A DNA stretch of 64,000 bases from Nitrospirota bacterium (GCA_016213935.1 JACQZG010000008.1:21399-85398), one strand, 5' to 3'. Shown: positions 6,001-15,000, counted from the first letter of the stretch. Program-made: the numbers.

Positions 6001-9000
6001 CGAAGAGCACAGTTATTTTTATACTGCTTTTATCAGCGGCATTTTCGGTTTTAGCCGTTTACGCGACTCTTTATAAAGTTCCTGAGCATCATGTTTTTTA
6101 CATTTATGCCGTATTCTCCATCGTGTATTTCATCATTATGTTTTTTGTCAGGCATGATTGAATTTAACTTTGAAGACATTTCGGTCTTTTTGCCGTTATT
6201 CTCTAATATAGCATTGCTCGAATTTCCGGCCTGAATTTCTTGTTCATGCATAACGTTCTATTGTATTTACTGCTTATCGCCGCCCCATTGTCGCATGGAG
6301 CAGTTGAAATATGGTCAGTCACATTTCTGCATCTTATTTCAATAAGTTTAATGAGCTTATGGTGTTTATCGGTCTTGCGGCAAAGGCGCCTGCAATTTTT
6401 TCGCACTCCGTTGGACAAACCTATAGCCGCATTTGTCTTATTAATATGTTTTTCTTTCTTCTATTCAGAATATCCCTATGCAAGCAGACTGCAGGCATAT
6501 TTAATAATCGGCTATGCAGGATTATTTTACTACCTTATCAATAGACAAAACGGCAGGAACGATATTATCAGGCTTGTTTGGTTTCTTGTCATATTCGGCT
6601 CTCTCTTTGCTACCTCCGGATTGATCTTTGCCGGCGTCAACCTCCCCGGCGATTCCAGCGTCTCATTTTCTTTTGTTAATTCGAATCATTTTGCGGGCTA
6701 TCTTGAGATGATTGCTTTGCTGGCTATGGGACTGGCTTTTGCATATGGCGGAGGAAAACGCTTTTTGCTTTTAGCGCTTTGCGTATTTATCTCAATTGCC
6801 ATATTTTTTTCCTTATCAAGAGGGGGTGTGCTCGGCTTTTTGTCAGGAACCGCCTTTTTCGCATTTTATTATGTGAGGAGAAAGAAGATAAGCACTTTGA
6901 CGCTGATTGCTTTTGCATTCTCACTGTTTTGTTTTACGGTATGGCTTGGCAACGAAGCATTTTTCGAGAGGATGGCCACGTTAAAGGAGCCGCTTATTGC
7001 GGGGAAGGAGAGGCTGATTATATGGAGGGGAGCTTCGGGCATTATAGGGGATAATTTCTGGCTCGGCACAGGAATAGGGACTTTCAGATATTCTTTTCCG
7101 CGGTATCTGCTTAAACCCGTGCAAACTGCGATAAGCCATGCTCATAACGACTATCTTGAAGTGATTGCGGAGACCGGCATAGCCGGGGGATTAATCTTGC
7201 TATCCGGCGTTATAATCCTTTTCCTGAAAGCGATGAAATGCTTTTCAGGCGACGAAAGGAGCCGTTTGCAGCCGGTTGGAATCGGTGCTCTTTCGGGATG
7301 TTTCGCATTATTGGTTCATGGTATGACTGATTTTAATTTTCATATTCCATCCAATGCGATACTCTTTGTCGTTTTTTCTTCTGTGATTGTTAATTCGTCG
7401 GCTCTTATTCAACGGCCTCATTCAGAGAAAAGGATGCGCATGATCGATATTAATATTCAGGCGAAATTCATATTGCCTCTGTATACGGCGGCTGCGATAT
7501 GCGCCTTTATCTCATTTGCGGCGGTCATTTCACCGTATATCGGCGAGATTCACATGAAGGAAGCCCGGAAACATCAATTGTCAGAAGATTATGACTCCGC
7601 TTATGCTCATCTCAACAAGGCGCTTTTCTGGGATCCCGGCAATGCGGGCAATATGGCTGCGATGGGTGATTTGCTCATTACAAGATCTTTTCTTGCCCGA
7701 AGCAACTCGGAAAAAGAGTGGTACATTATCAGGTCGCTCAAATATTTTGAAGATGCAACCGCGGCTTGTCCCGTTAACAGCTATTTTTACTCAAAGAAAG
7801 GTTTTGTGCTTGACCGGATGGGGCGCGCTAATGAGGCTGAGACGGCTCTCGCAAAATCGGTTGAACTTGCTCCGGCGAATTCTTTTGCCCGCTACACGCT
7901 TGCCTCTTTTTACATCCAACACAAAGATATGGATAAGGCATACGATTCGTATGCGCATTTATTGAGGCTTGACCTTTCATTCTTTCCAAAGGTCTTTGAA
8001 AGTATCTGGAAAGTAAGGCCGGATTATGAGCAAATGAAAAGGGCGATTCCTGAAATTCCCGCAATAAGGGTTTAATTTTCAGAACATTTGTTTAACGCGC
8101 GCGAGCCTGATGCCGCACTGGATGAACTCAGGTTTGCTTTCTCTTTGGAACCATCGCCGGGTTATGCCCTGTCGCACCTTCAGGGGCTTTGCCGTGTTAA
8201 AAGATGGGATTTGGCCCTTAAGGCCGGGGAAGAGTATATATCACGCTTTAGAGATGATAAGCCGCTTTTAAAACAGATGGCGATTATTTATGAAAACAGC
8301 GGAAACGATAAGGCAGCTGCAGGTATTTATGAAAAACTGATGTCGGCTAATCCTGAGGAGGCTTCGTTATATGTGGCTGCGGCGGATTTTTACCGGAGGA
8401 AAGAGCGGTATGCCGAAGCCGTTGATCTTCTGAAAATAGGAATCAGCAGATTGCCGGATGAGAAAAATCTGTATTTTGCGCTTGACGGTTTGTATCAGCT
8501 GAGGCGACAGAATAAAGAGGCTGCCGAGTCTTTAAAATCACTGCTTGCTTATATGCCTGATGATGCTGAAATTTACTATATCATAGCCCTTAACTACCGT
8601 GAGGCAAGGATGCAGGAAGAAGCCCTTGCATATATGAAAAAAGCTGTTTTTCACAGGCCCGCGAGTGAGGATTACCGCTACACCCTCGGAATTTGGTACA
8701 TGGAGCTTGGATTATATGCACAGTCAGTTGAGCAGATAAAGAAATGCCTTGAGATTAATTCAAAGAATAAAAGCTGCGAACGCGCATTTGACAAAATATA
8801 TAAAGAAGTGGGGATAACCAAATGAAATCCTGAAACCGATTTTGATATTTTGACCTTTATTGCATATAGTTTTACAATAAAGCAGTTGTATATATAGGAT
8901 ACGACATGGAGAGGTTTTTTAAGTTCTGCAGTGGATTTTTTATATTAATTTTGTCAGCCGCAATTATGCTGAACGTCAGCGGCAGTTCAGCAATATCGGC

Positions 9001-12000: not shown

Positions 12001-15000
12001 GTCGGCAATGTCGGGATAGGCGTCAGGTTTTCCGAGATAACACAAGGACGGTTTTCTTTTGGTATAGACGCATATGGCAAATTTGTATTTGACACCGGGC
12101 TCAATTACCAGCATTCTGAAGATACGACAATACGCGTTTCTGCCAGTAAGACGACAAACACTTCTTTCTCTTCTTCTTACAGCAGCAAGATTTTCAAAGC
12201 CACAAGATATAATCTCGAGATAGAAAAAGAGTTCTTGGAGAAATTTTCAATTTTACTCTCCGGCGGATATATTATCCATACTTATACTTCAGACGATTCT
12301 GATGAGGGGCAGGATAAGATCGTAAGCGGGGAGGCATCAATATCATATCCGATAGAAGACTGGCTTCATGTCGGCGCTCATTACAATTACGCCCAGAGAA
12401 ATTCCGACAATACGGAAAGCGAATATACGAATAATAGAATCGGAATGTTCGTGCAATTCATTTTTTAGCAGTTTGTTAATAATCTCCTCCTGCTGTTCAA
12501 TTGATAATAATCAATAATAATTGTTAATATTAAAACATGCGCTACGCTGATGCTATGTCCTGTTTTAAACCATAAGGGGCCTTTATTCTTGGTACAAGCA
12601 TGATTAAAGTTCTTCAAAAAAGTATTTTACTCATCACATTTGCAATTATAATCGCAGGGTTGTTTGGGCTCAGTTATGCTATTGATCAAACGACAGGAAC
12701 CGAGGTCCTCGAGCAAGCGGTTCCCGAAGAGCCTGTTACTGTTGAGGTCCCGAGTATGATGTACAGTGTCGGGATAGGGGATATCCTGTCGATCAATATA
12801 AAGGACAGCCCTGAATTCAGCGGCAATTTTCCGGTTCACGATAAAGGCTGGATAATGTACCCGATGCTTGGAGAGATTAAGGCTGCAGGCCTGACGCTAT
12901 TGGAGATAGAGGCTGCCATAAAAGAGAAGCTTGAAAAAGAATATTTGTATGACCCTGTTGTCAATATTTCCATAAACAGGTATGGCAGCAGAAAGGTCGA
13001 GATACTTGGCGGCATGGGAAACCCGGGGGCATACTACATCAGCGGCACCACCCGCCTTTTTGACCTCTTTATAAGGGCGCATATGATTTATTCGAACTAT
13101 GGGGAGAACATGAAAGGCCGTATGGTCCGCATCCTGAGAAAAGGAGCAGTTGACGGTAAAACTGAAAAGGATTCCGCAGTTCTCCTTATTGACCTTTTTA
13201 AATTATTGGTTGATGTGGACGACGAAGCCAATATCTATCTGCAGGATGGCGATATCATATATGTCCCTGGCGGAACGGCTTATATCTACGTTGTGGGCGA
13301 GGTAATGAGGCCGGGCTCTTTTACTCATCAAATGGACATGACTGTTCTTAAAGCCATAACATTGGCGGGCGGTCCTACGAAGGCAGCGGATGTAAATAAC
13401 ACTTTTGTGAAAAGGATAATCAACGATAAAGAGGTTGTAAAGGTAAAGGTTGAGATGCCTGACGTTCTTCAGCCCGAAGATATTGTTGAAGTCCCGTTAA
13501 GTTTCTGGTAGGTTTTATAATTTTGAGGTTCTGACTCTATGTTTGATTATAAACAATATCTGTACATCATACAGCAGCGTATTTGGGTTATTGCCGCCAC
13601 GTTTTTCCCTATAGTAATATCGGCTGCCATTTATACAATGAACCAGGTACCTGTTTATAAGGCAACGGCTTTATTGATTATAGAACCCGCCATCCCTCCT
13701 GCCGTTGATATCGGAGGGACATTAAATTATGCCAGACTGGATCTGGCCGGTTTTTATAATACTCAGTATGAGATCATCAGATCGTCTGCTGTTGCAAAAA
13801 AGGCCCTGGAAATTCTTGAGCCTAAGTATAAAGAGGACCTTTTAAAAAGAAAAGATCCTGTCGAAGCATTTCGCAGACAGATTTTTGTGAGCCCTATAAG
13901 GGGTAGTCAGCTTATAAATATTAGTATTGACAATGTGGACCCCAAGATTGCAACAGAACGTGTAAACGCTCTGGGAAGGGCATTTGTCCAACACAACCTT
14001 GAAGATAAGATGCTCGCTTCGAAGGATTCATTCACATGGCTTTCCGAACAGATAGCCGTAATGCAGGGCAAGGTGAAGCAGTCGGAAGAGGCGCTTCTTC
14101 AGTATAACGAGAAAGAGAATATTATTGCTCTTGAAAAGAAGAAGACGCTTCTGGAAGAGAATCTTTCCGAACTTCAAAAGCAATATAATCAAGAGCTGAT
14201 ACAATACAAACAGCTTGAGGTGATGCTTAAAGAGATAAGTGAATCACAGAAGAAGTCAGAAATATCGAATGCTATCCCGCTCAAGTTCCAGAGCCAAAAT
14301 TACATTTATCTCGTGTCTGAATACGGCAAATTAGAGGCTCAACTGGTTGAGAAGGCGAAGAAATACAAAGAGAAACATCCTGAAATGATAAACATCAAGT
14401 CCAAATTTGATGATATAAGAAGTCTGATTTTAAGCGAGCAGGAGAGGATAATTAAAAGCATTGAACTTGAATTCAGAATCAGCAAGGCCACCCTCGATTC
14501 CATACTCTCCAACATTGCCGCGCAGAAGATTGAATCAATGCATCTTGCTCAGCAGGCCATTCAGTACGGAGTATTGAAGAGGGACGCAGAGACGAACACA
14601 CAAATGTATGATGTCCTGCTTCAGAGGCTTAAACAGGCTGATATCAGCGGCAATATCACAGCCAACAATGTCCGGATAGTTGATGAGGCCAAGATTCCGG
14701 ATATGGTAACACCGCCGCTTGCAATGAATCTTTTCAGGGCTGTTATTGCAGGGCTGTTATTGGGGATATTCATAACTTTTGTGCTTGATTATCTTGATCA
14801 CACGGTCAAGAGCGGAGATGACGTTAACCTTCGCCTTAAAGAGCAGCTTCTCGGTCTTATACCTTTGATAAAAGGCGGCGTTGACCTTGAAAAAGAGGAT
14901 TCCGAAGAGATCAGCCGTTATTACCGCGACATTAAGACAACCGTCGGTTTCTACAGCAGGGAACATCAGCTCAAGACTATGCTTATAACAAGTTCCATAA

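Follow-up and report, generated by a model that had tools for sequence, protein, structure and literature searches.

The window analysed here, a 64,000-nucleotide stretch of DNA from a Nitrospirota bacterium, carries five consecutive genes on its + strand. The first encodes a membrane protein of the Wzy_C (O-antigen ligase/polymerase-like) type that carries a TPR domain at its C-terminus (6240..8825, +). In the window this gene is broken by an in-frame TAA into two parts (6240..8075 and 8088..8825); each orthologue is one unbroken ORF, 845-884 aa long. This is followed by a secreted protein of 754 aa plus stop (8906..11170, +), referred to below as the FecR-Cys protein, a BBP2_2-family outer-membrane beta-barrel (11158..12468, +), a short OPX protein of the Class-3 type (12600..13511, +) and a Wzc-like polysaccharide co-polymerase (PCP) and P-loop kinase with GNVR and AAA_31/ParA domains (13539..15560, +). 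This gene order is conserved in five lineages, the window and four others, and in a sixth (L007) the first two genes are present before the contig ends. Orthologues at 52-64% identity to the FecR-Cys protein share its architecture, and in one of the four other lineages the Cys protein has a different N-terminal half, composed of DUF1573 and one FecR domain.

The initial annotation described the second gene as a 754-aa ORF with a signal peptide, preceded by a sigma70-like promoter and overlapping the start of the barrel gene, and each of these features was recovered, the promoter as a candidate by consensus match only. The N-terminus, MERFFKFCSGFFILILSAAIMLNVSGSSAISA followed by Lys, reads as a Sec type I signal peptide, predicted to span aa 1-32 (8906..9001, +) and to end ...SSAISA before that Lys. 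The leaders of the orthologues are alike, and this shared hydrophobic segment favours the start at 8906 over the NCBI start at Met22. The signal peptide is the sole hydrophobic segment of the protein, with no transmembrane helix beyond it, and no lipobox was apparent on inspection of the leader. The C-terminus, ...DPSPVDPACSR, has neither a hydrophobic tail nor a MYXO-CTERM, PEP-CTERM or similar sorting tag. Within the 80-nt gap 5' of the gene lie two overlapping sigma-70-like matches, TTGATA-17-TATAGT and TTGACC-17-TACAAT (8842..8878, +), both matching at 10/12 positions and giving the best + strand scores in 6000-13700. At the opposite end, the TGA at 11168-11170 overlaps an ATG at 11167 (ATGA), and a second in-frame ATG from which the barrel may start lies at 11158.

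Across the whole protein, Pfam FecR (PF04773) scores 64.9 bits over two stretches, against a cut-off of 24. Of the two FecR-like domains originally annotated, the second (aa 263-358; 9692..9979, +) is secure at 51.6 bits alone, while the first (aa 67-145; 9104..9340, +) is called borderline because it reaches 23.8 bits alone against that cut-off of 24. The AF2 model of the first domain is nonetheless all-beta (pLDDT 60-85; 60-89 across the FecR part), and a Foldseek comparison of the second, within the N-terminal half, returned the anti-sigma periplasmic domains 4m0h (5.8e-6) and PupR 6ovk (2.2e-5) over ~142 columns. The FecR-Cys protein therefore has both PF04773 and a predicted N-terminal fold in common with the FecR/PupR anti-sigma regulators. 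In cell-surface signalling, the periplasmic domain of FecR/PupR binds the periplasmic domain of an outer-membrane barrel protein, with which the title of the 6ovk entry agrees.

This likeness of fold, the Pfam match and the adjoining outer-membrane barrel gene would all suit a FecR-type sensor controlling the polysaccharide genes through outer-membrane signalling, a signalling module having been raised as a possibility at the outset. Such a sensor is nevertheless highly improbable, as the protein contains neither a cytoplasmic anti-sigma domain nor a transmembrane helix or other membrane anchor. The anti-sigma layout places a cytoplasmic domain and then one transmembrane helix ahead of the periplasmic part, whereas here the first beta domain directly follows the signal peptide. 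Moreover, neither the neighbouring window ORFs scanned nor the called genes of the orthologous loci included an ECF sigma factor or a TonB-dependent transducer. The FecR-Cys protein also differs from these regulators in having two copies of the domain, joined to a Cys-rich rod.

The mature protein contains 40 Cys, in line with the more than 30 already noted, and every one of them lies past residue 408, in or around a C-terminal tandem array with a TRF period of 57 nt. The array opens with N-cap 1, CNYCQKLDALGVCVPDLGK (10130..10186, +), a CxxC-x8-C element whose Cys are invariant in the orthologues and whose type is also present in FecR proteins with zero repeats. Six 19-aa units of the pattern DPGxCxKCxxGxxVxDxxE then follow in exact 57-nt register (block 1; 10187..10528, +), succeeded by the block junction and N-cap 2, PGECPVVPCNICQRVNEEGVCVPDNER (10529..10609, +), a further eight 19-aa units in 57-nt register (block 2; 10610..11065, +), and a C-cap with five Cys, PCDDNDVCSMNDHCLGGICIGDRDPSPVDPACSR (11066..11167, +), which recurs in numerous repeat carriers that are not otherwise related. 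The existence of a Cys-rich C-terminal array was correctly read, but each unit spans exactly 19 aa (57 nt) and not 20 aa. In place of the approximately 15 units first counted, there are two capped blocks of six and eight canonical DPGxCxKC units, and these 14 units together with the two CxxC-bearing N-caps give a total of 16 CxxC motifs. The composition of the rod is acidic, with 72 Asp+Glu among 350 residues. The units of block 2 had also been taken as nearly identical in DNA, and hence as suggestive of recent expansion or concerted evolution, but their mean DNA identity is 65% with a maximum of 81%, and no such process is seen in the window. The accompanying suggestion of variable copy number does hold between relatives, which have unit splits of 6+8, 6+9, 5+9 and 5+9. 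Four orthologues, 52-64% identical, all keep 14-15 units despite the shifted block split, an argument for constraint on length that rests on n=4. Outside the window, arrays of highly similar units do occur: L001 contains a 114-nt double unit in 3.6 copies that are 95% identical, and L007 contains 57-nt units that are 95% identical, its contig stopping inside the array.

Profile searches bear out the view that the repeat lies outside described families, with no match in Pfam, NCBIfam or the PDB and thus no well-characterised family to which it could be assigned. The best PDB profile match, TNFR10A, is non-significant (E 0.03). At E up to 10, no DnaJ-type, zinc-ribbon or rubredoxin model of Pfam passed threshold in the repeat (the nearest zinc-type scores, both below threshold, are zf-CCHC_5 at E 0.13 and Zn_ribbon_LysW at E 0.9), nor did Pfam TSP_3 match, nor any NCBIfam model of the repeat region, including the TraA-type Cys repeat TIGR04201. 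The AF2 model of the repeat likewise has no solved structural relative. An exhaustive HMM search over 1.84 billion representatives yielded about 40 real repeat carriers, none of them named. Away from polysaccharide loci, the same repeat is found in small coiled-coil proteins that are secreted, those of cable bacteria being one example, and the rod is therefore a generic module rather than one specific to export.

TNF-receptor Cys-rich domains and thrombospondin type 3 repeats are built of short units that lack a hydrophobic core and are held by consecutive disulfides, the loops of the latter being acidic. The rod would share with both the concept of a disulfide-held, extended array of short units, but it has no significant sequence or fold match to either, and is set apart by its 19-residue period, its DPGxCxKC signature and a presumed bacterial periplasmic context.

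Structure prediction of the repeat block gave a confident hairpin model. The last four units and the C-cap, modelled by AF2 from a 17-sequence alignment (pLDDT 92.2, pTM 0.68), form stacked beta-hairpins, one per unit, in which the hairpin turn comes after the CxxC and not inside it. Among 54 family arrays, a lone Cys lies 7-19 residues upstream of the first CxxC in 49, and a Cys lies 9-19 residues downstream of the last CxxC in all 52 that are untruncated, regardless of how many units or which caps they have. Odd CxxC totals occur often, and copy number frequently differs by one unit. This Cys bookkeeping is compatible with an inter-unit disulfide ladder, in which the second Cys of each unit would be bonded to the first Cys of the next. 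The C-terminal half would then constitute a stiff acidic rod of two capped blocks, comprising 14 beta-hairpin units of 19 residues and terminating in a 5-Cys knot.

The protein was originally proposed to be a metal- or disulfide-rich stalk, and the ladder corresponds to the second of these options. The first, a periplasmic rod whose paired Cys and conserved Asp/Glu bind Zn, Fe, Ni or another thiophilic metal, being metal-bridged instead of disulfide-bridged and serving as a metal buffer, store or electron carrier, is unlikely. It would draw on the abundance of CxxC motifs and acidic residues noted above, on the loose resemblance of a CxxC followed by Gly to zinc knuckles, and on the occurrence of the repeat in cable bacteria, whose periplasmic fibres are reported to use sulfur-ligated nickel. 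The hosts are also probably anaerobes of sulfidic or groundwater settings, where extensive periplasmic disulfides are less expected, so metal bridging retains some probability. However, sites made of two CxxC motifs do not agree with odd CxxC counts or with copy number that shifts one unit at a time, the lone Cys flanking the arrays on either side suit a disulfide ladder, and the predicted turn lies beyond the CxxC. The failure of DnaJ-type, zinc-ribbon and rubredoxin models to match at E up to 10 and the lack of any metal transport or cofactor gene linked to the FecR-Cys gene point the same way. Judged from these sequence features, metal binding by the CxxC pairs is disfavoured.

The outer-membrane barrel annotated downstream is confirmed by a Pfam BBP2_2 (PF10082) score of 61.8 bits against a cut-off of 23.7, along with a signal peptide and a C-terminal Phe; TIGR03016 and EpsL are matched solely below their cut-offs. 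The barrel gene stands beside the Cys gene in every orthologue-bearing locus, and the stop-start junction between them is overlapping or almost abutting in 4/5 loci. The 303-aa OPX that follows consists of Poly_export and SLBB/SLBB_2 domains only and, having neither Wza_C nor GfcC domains, falls within the Class-3 definition (PMC9603273). It begins with a type I signal peptide, has no lipobox, and ends ...EVPLSFW, a C-terminus conserved as ...EVP[LI]SFW in 5/5 orthologues.

Composite translocons of a Class-3 OPX and a beta-barrel have been described in Myxococcus xanthus, where WzaX/S/B act with WzpX/S/B (PMC9601211, PMC9603273, PMC12819527), and WzaB cannot bind WzpB without its terminal SFF (PMC12819527). 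The window resembles these systems in its OPX of Poly_export and SLBB domains alone adjoining both an outer-membrane barrel and a Wzc-like PCP, in the SFW tail of that OPX, which like SFF is Ser-aromatic-aromatic, and in a barrel-OPX-PCP order that is found again in distant relatives of the barrel. It differs in the type I signal peptide of the OPX, which replaces a lipobox, and in the addition of a 754-aa secreted protein between the Wzy-like and porin genes; no FecR-domain or Cys-rich subunit is described in the literature consulted on the Myxococcus systems. Because the OPX ends in the Ser-aromatic-aromatic motif through which the porin is bound in Myxococcus, the barrel most probably serves as the porin in a composite translocon of the Class-3 OPX/beta-barrel kind, likened to Wzp by gene context and this tail. 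The evidence is consistent with the stalk initially proposed and with its tie to the polysaccharide pathway, but the barrel is not best seen as the stalk's own dedicated partner, because in distant relatives the barrel adjoins a short OPX, followed by a PCP, with no Cys-rich protein. Most barrel relatives are without a FecR protein, which is therefore not a core part of the machine. In L021, a single-FecR protein lacking the Cys rod is encoded directly upstream of a 22%-identical barrel, which is then followed by an OPX, and the link between FecR and barrel therefore recurs independently of the rod.

The reading preferred here, to which a probability of roughly 40% is given, is that the FecR-Cys protein is a structural accessory of fixed length docked on the polysaccharide translocon, with the rod as strut or spacer. 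Sec-exported, soluble and non-enzymatic, it would be a structural part of a module of the Wzx/Wzy type that polymerises and exports exopolysaccharide. Its two FecR-type all-beta domains may dock it onto the export machine, a role proposed because their fold is the one with which anti-sigma regulators grip outer-membrane barrel proteins at a periplasmic domain. The likeliest docking partner would be the co-translated BBP2_2 porin, and the alternative would be the TPR domain of the Wzy-like protein encoded upstream. The rod would most likely span a fixed length within the cell envelope. The gene for this secreted FecR protein, with its unnamed and putatively Cys-stapled hairpin repeats of 19 residues, is a conserved addition to the polysaccharide export machine of these Nitrospirota.

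A surface-exposed stalk or adhesin that the barrel helps to assemble at, or move across, the outer membrane is possible but less probable. The FecR end or the tip of the rod would then lie outside the cell, holding exopolysaccharide or binding surfaces as proposed for TraA/TraB. In myxobacteria, TraA and TraB form an overlapping two-gene unit of a Cys-rich repeat protein and an outer-membrane-associated partner, and a rigid stalk is the role proposed for the TraA repeats (PMC3325183). The FecR-Cys protein and its barrel overlap translationally in the manner of traA-traB (PMC3325183), and both Cys proteins are Sec-exported, with an N-terminal binding-type domain ahead of the Cys-rich tandem repeats. 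The resemblance does not extend to sequence, since the repeat families differ (no TIGR04201 match), the head domain is PA14 in TraA and FecR here, and TraB is an OmpA-domain protein whereas the partner here, a barrel of the BBP2_2 family, belongs to an operon for polysaccharide export. Proteins with FecR domains can serve as surface adhesins, and there is a weak NCBIfam match to Leptospira Lsa33 (1.7e-9, far below cut-off); acidic Cys-rich repeat proteins are typical of extracellular matrices, and the C-cap is kept across unrelated carriers, as expected of a functional tip. Against exposure, the Sec leader is the sole secretion signal of the protein, which is without the MYXO-CTERM or other C-terminal sorting tag, lipobox or membrane anchor, a folded and disulfide-bonded rod would be ill-suited to passage through a barrel, and the barrel family elsewhere pairs with OPX and PCP without a comparable passenger.

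Extending the strut reading, it may tentatively be suggested, at a likelihood well short of even, that the array represents an undescribed fold class, a disulfide-laddered beta-hairpin rod of length set by unit number, serving these Nitrospirota as strut or ruler and adding a fourth structural component to Class-3 OPX/porin translocons. If so, the rod would fix the distance from the outer-membrane porin to the inner-membrane Wzy-TPR/PCP complex, or else the extent of a projection from the cell surface.

As regards a possible XrtA/PEP-CTERM exopolysaccharide system, the locus of which would hold an exosortase gene and genes for PEP-CTERM-tagged proteins, no exosortase was found among the part of the window ORFs that was scanned. 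A TIGR03108-like amidotransferase is present at 610 bits, below cut-off, as is a TIGR03006 deacetylase, which scores 278.8, above its cut-off of 276.2.

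The FecR-Cys gene, called as an open reading frame at 8906..11170 (+), encodes 754 residues, and a Sec type I signal peptide can be read in the first 32 (MERFFKFCSGFFILILSAAIMLNVSGSSAISA). No lipobox is present in this leader and its Cys8 precedes the hydrophobic core, on which grounds a lipoprotein reading was rejected. The identical database entry, P0001, is a 734-residue "FecR domain-containing protein" from a Nitrospirae MAG that begins at Met22 and so lacks the signal peptide (window 8906-8968). When N-termini were compared, three orthologues and one more distant relative were found to open with a comparable hydrophobic leader, and 8906 is therefore the better start. 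The Pfam FecR model (PF04773) scores 64.9 bits over two stretches of the protein. Scored separately, residues 263-358 reach 51.6 bits and residues 67-145 reach 23.8 bits against a cut-off of 24, so that of the two FecR-like domains claimed in the initial annotation, the second is clear and the first borderline.

Modeled in full with AlphaFold2, the protein has a pLDDT of 49 overall and of 60-89 across two all-beta N-terminal domains, whose Foldseek matches are periplasmic domains from anti-sigma factors (4m0h, 5.8e-6; PupR 6ovk, 2.2e-5). Anti-sigma regulators use a FecR-type fold to grip the periplasmic domain of an outer-membrane barrel protein. A FecR-type signaling sensor could be read from such a head, but this is highly improbable here: an anti-sigma role was rejected because the protein has neither a transmembrane nor an anti-sigma part, and the neighboring genes tested include neither a sigma factor nor a transducer. 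The protein also contains no enzymatic or membrane-anchoring domain. Word-indexed homologue searches returned only four full-length relatives, and with the N-terminal half alone returned only small single-FecR proteins in unrelated contexts.

All 40 Cys residues of the mature protein lie C-terminal to residue 408. The C-terminal 350 residues form two blocks of like design, each opening with an N-cap (CxxC-x8-C-x-PD), which is followed by six units in block 1 and by eight units in block 2; a C-cap bearing five Cys (PCDDNDVCSMNDHCLGGICIG...C) follows block 2. The units, all of exactly 19 residues (57 nt), share the consensus DPGxCxKCxxGxxVxDxxE, and the array totals 14 canonical units and 16 CxxC motifs, in place of the "about 15" units of 20 residues first counted. 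Nor are the block 2 units nearly identical in DNA, as had been stated, their identity averaging 65% with a maximum of 81%; the mean between block 1 units is 57%. Because no unit pair exceeds 81%, the suggested recent expansion is rejected for the window, and it is instead in two relatives that such a history is seen. In the L001 orthologue (11710..12123), a 114-nt double unit occurs in 3.6 copies at 95% identity, and at 10658..10887 of L007, 57-nt units are 95% identical in an array that runs off the contig end. These arrays show recent homogenization or expansion, and the copy number in strains of this kind is likely mis-assembled or polymorphic. Two long antisense open reading frames over the window array (9959..10489, -, 176 aa; 10564..10986, -, 140 aa) were rejected as genes and most likely arise from the periodicity of the repeat. 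Both translate into periodic sequence (…HFLHMPGSSRLS…).

The initial impression that the repeat belongs to no described family was borne out. Searches of the C-terminal half against Pfam and NCBIfam at E up to 10 returned nothing, including the DnaJ-type, zinc-ribbon, TSP_3 and myxobacterial TIGR04201 models. Among PDB sequences, a single-sequence query of the repeat found no match, and a profile query recovered only TNF-receptor Cys-rich domains at non-significant scores (best E 0.03). An exhaustive HMM search with the aligned C-terminal halves against 1.84 billion cluster representatives gave 84 matches, of which about 40 hold at least one true unit once false positives are removed; periodic low-complexity matches (e.g. 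P0012, P0013, P0018 and P0020) were dropped on inspection. Every carrier with a source name is a "hypothetical protein" or a "FecR domain/family protein". Arrays are by far the longest in the window's family (14-15 units), and other carriers have 1-8.

One group of these other carriers is made up of small secreted proteins whose N-terminus is an Ala-rich coiled coil, among them those of the cable bacteria Candidatus Electronema halotolerans (L009 7371..8312) and Candidatus Electrothrix gigas (L010), which bear two to four DPGxCxKC units. The Electronema protein possesses a C-cap like that of the window protein, and no polysaccharide locus surrounds its gene. A tie of these proteins to the envelope structures of cable bacteria is conceivable. 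A second group consists of "zero-unit" proteins, in which one FecR domain precedes an N-cap fused straight to a C-cap. Their genes (L011 1056..1949, L012, L013 and L014 33..890) lie immediately 5' of a gene for an AMIN-domain N-acetylmuramoyl-L-alanine amidase, and this adjacency in several metagenome contigs suggests a second, cell wall-related context for the module of FecR domain and Cys caps.

In a full-length AlphaFold2 prediction from five sequences, the repeat region was unusable at pLDDT 30-40. The last four units and cap, modeled from a 17-sequence alignment, gave a pLDDT of 92.2 and a pTM of 0.68, with one beta-hairpin per unit composed of a strand carrying the second Cys, a two-residue turn ending at the conserved Gly, and a strand carrying the conserved Val. 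The rod is a confidently predicted hairpin array, and its 19-residue DPGxCxKC unit a rare, unnamed repeat with no solved relative.

The disulfide topology was assessed by Cys bookkeeping over 54 arrays of the family. A lone Cys is found 7-19 residues N-terminal to the first CxxC in 49 of the 54, and a Cys lies 9-19 residues past the last CxxC in all 52 untruncated arrays, whatever their unit number or cap type. The CxxC count is often odd, and orthologues differ by single units. The lone flanking Cys, odd counts and single-unit differences match what is predicted of a disulfide ladder, in which the second Cys of one unit would be bonded to the first Cys of the next. Intra-unit disulfides fit poorly, since the flanking Cys would then have no nearby partner, as do Cys4 metal sites built from two CxxC motifs, for which the predicted bookkeeping is unlike that observed. 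A metal held by two Cys and carboxylates could possibly form the bridge in place of the disulfide; a metal-bridged or metal-binding rod is, on the whole, unlikely.

The gene 5' of FecR-Cys encodes a Wzy_C membrane protein whose C-terminus carries a TPR domain. On the 3' side of FecR-Cys lies the barrel gene, which begins either at ATG 11167, which overlaps the FecR-Cys TGA stop in the ATGA originally described, or at the in-frame ATG 11158. Its product of 433-436 residues (to 12468) is an outer-membrane barrel, as had been predicted, with a signal peptide, a C-terminal Phe and a score of 61.8 bits against Pfam BBP2_2 (cut-off 23.7); the PEP-CTERM-associated barrel models TIGR03016 and EpsL match weakly, under their cut-offs. 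There follow a 303-residue OPX of Poly_export and SLBB domains only (12600..13511), a Wzc-like co-polymerase/kinase, or PCP (13539..15560), and then epimerase, Wzy-like, glycosyltransferase, flippase and modification genes.

Gene order was compared among the window, two other Nitrospirae MAGs, a JGI contig and one more distant lineage. The order Wzy_C-TPR, FecR-Cys, BBP2_2, OPX, PCP is identical at every FecR-Cys locus with readable flanks, so that the barrel is indeed co-conserved with the FecR-Cys protein, and a Thermodesulfovibrionia contig carries the first two genes before it ends. In the distant lineage, the protein combines DUF1573 and one FecR domain with eight CxxC units, which follow one degenerate unit, and a cap. 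The FecR-Cys/barrel junction consists of overlaps of 4, 1 and 4 nt and gaps of 4 and 43 nt at five loci. As for the sigma70-like promoter proposed before the pair, its two best consensus matches do fall in the gap 5' of FecR-Cys, where they are compatible with a promoter. In the window, an in-frame TAA at 8073-8075 splits the Wzy_C-TPR gene into open reading frames at 6240..8075 and 8088..8825, and in all relatives this gene is a single frame of 845-884 aa. The window reads ...AIRV*FSEHLFNAR at the TAA versus ...SAHRNEFAEYLFNKN in L001, and the stop could be due to a nonsense mutation or to misassembly, or the gene could truly be split.

The initial annotation paired the barrel with the Cys-rich protein as its own partner. 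The barrel is best explained as supplying the porin in a composite OPX/barrel translocon. Class 3 OPX proteins comprise Poly_export-SLBB(n) only (PMC9603273); they lack a pore of their own in the outer membrane, and their counterpart is an integral beta-barrel porin (PMC9603273; PMC9601211). Myxococcus WzaB needs its three terminal residues, Ser-Phe-Phe, both to bind the porin WzpB and for secretion (PMC12819527). This terminus is resembled by the ...EVP[LI]SFW with which all five OPX orthologues end (window 13500-13511; L001, L002, L003 and L004). The OPX signal peptide is of type I in the window, L001 and L004, and has a lipobox (LLVSC) in L002. Metagenomes scanned with the barrel alignment yielded distant relatives of the barrel (21-22% identity), after which a short OPX and then a PCP nearly always come next; several of these OPX end in ESFF or ESYF, and no Cys-rich protein is encoded at these loci. 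Together, the adjoining Class 3 OPX, the SFW tail and the distant barrels that lack a Cys-rich neighbor argue for the translocon porin and against a private partner.

One distant locus, L021, nonetheless encodes a secreted protein of 274 residues with a single FecR domain (244..1068; PF04773, 6.8e-15) and no Cys rod. Its gene is directly 5' of one for a 22%-identical BBP2_2-like barrel, which precedes a short OPX ending in ESFF, and the protein shares 29% identity with the window protein's second FecR domain. The FecR-barrel pairing thus recurs outside the Cys-repeat family, which indicates that the link of FecR to this barrel family is not accidental. Literature on PF10082, BBP2_2 and TIGR03016 yielded nothing useful.

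The FecR-Cys protein is exported, and its gene lies inside the export sub-operon, coupled to the porin gene. In the favored reading, to which we would give a probability of roughly 40%, the FecR domains would serve for docking, either on the porin or on the Wzy-like protein's TPR domain, and a stiff, disulfide-laddered rod would serve as a fixed-length strut or spacer within the envelope. FecR genes come after TPR genes in unrelated loci too. In four orthologues at 52-64% identity, the total is 14-15 units, and the split between blocks differs. An exported rod might instead be displayed on the surface as a stalk or as an anchor for polysaccharide, much like TraA/TraB (PMC3325183), a possible but doubtful alternative; the remaining probability falls to something else. 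Should the rod be a fixed-length strut, envelope geometry could be probed in a simple, testable way through its unit number.

Systems with a barrel-OPX-PCP core are already known, and the FecR-Cys locus is a composite translocon of this type with an extra conserved structural gene made from a new, unnamed repeat. The FecR-Cys protein is not described in the papers searched, which covered FecR together with Wzy, Cys-rich repeats or the export of polysaccharide. How polysaccharide passes the outer membrane with an OPX that has no pore domain is only now emerging, and the published export model has three parts: PCP, Class-3 OPX and porin. A conserved fourth gene in the export sub-operon points to an unrecognized accessory component in at least some lineages, which is supported by the recurrence of FecR-type domains beside the porin gene. 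The FecR-Cys protein, narrow in distribution and of inferred function, is a concrete and testable accessory candidate for Class-3 OPX systems, and the DPGxCxKC unit, once named and solved, would extend the known repertoire of building blocks in bacterial envelope proteins.

The locus as a whole is an exopolysaccharide cluster of the Wzx/Wzy type that also shows affinities to XrtA-type ones. A TIGR03006 deacetylase scores above its cut-off and a TIGR03108-like amidotransferase is also present; no exosortase was found among the window reading frames tested. The cluster contains or is flanked by two B12-binding radical SAM genes (2700..4235, -; 39545..41029, +), a PAPS-reductase-like gene (23697..24299, +) and a sulfatase-family gene (28710..30086, +), which hint that the polymer may bear unusual methylation or sulfation chemistry.
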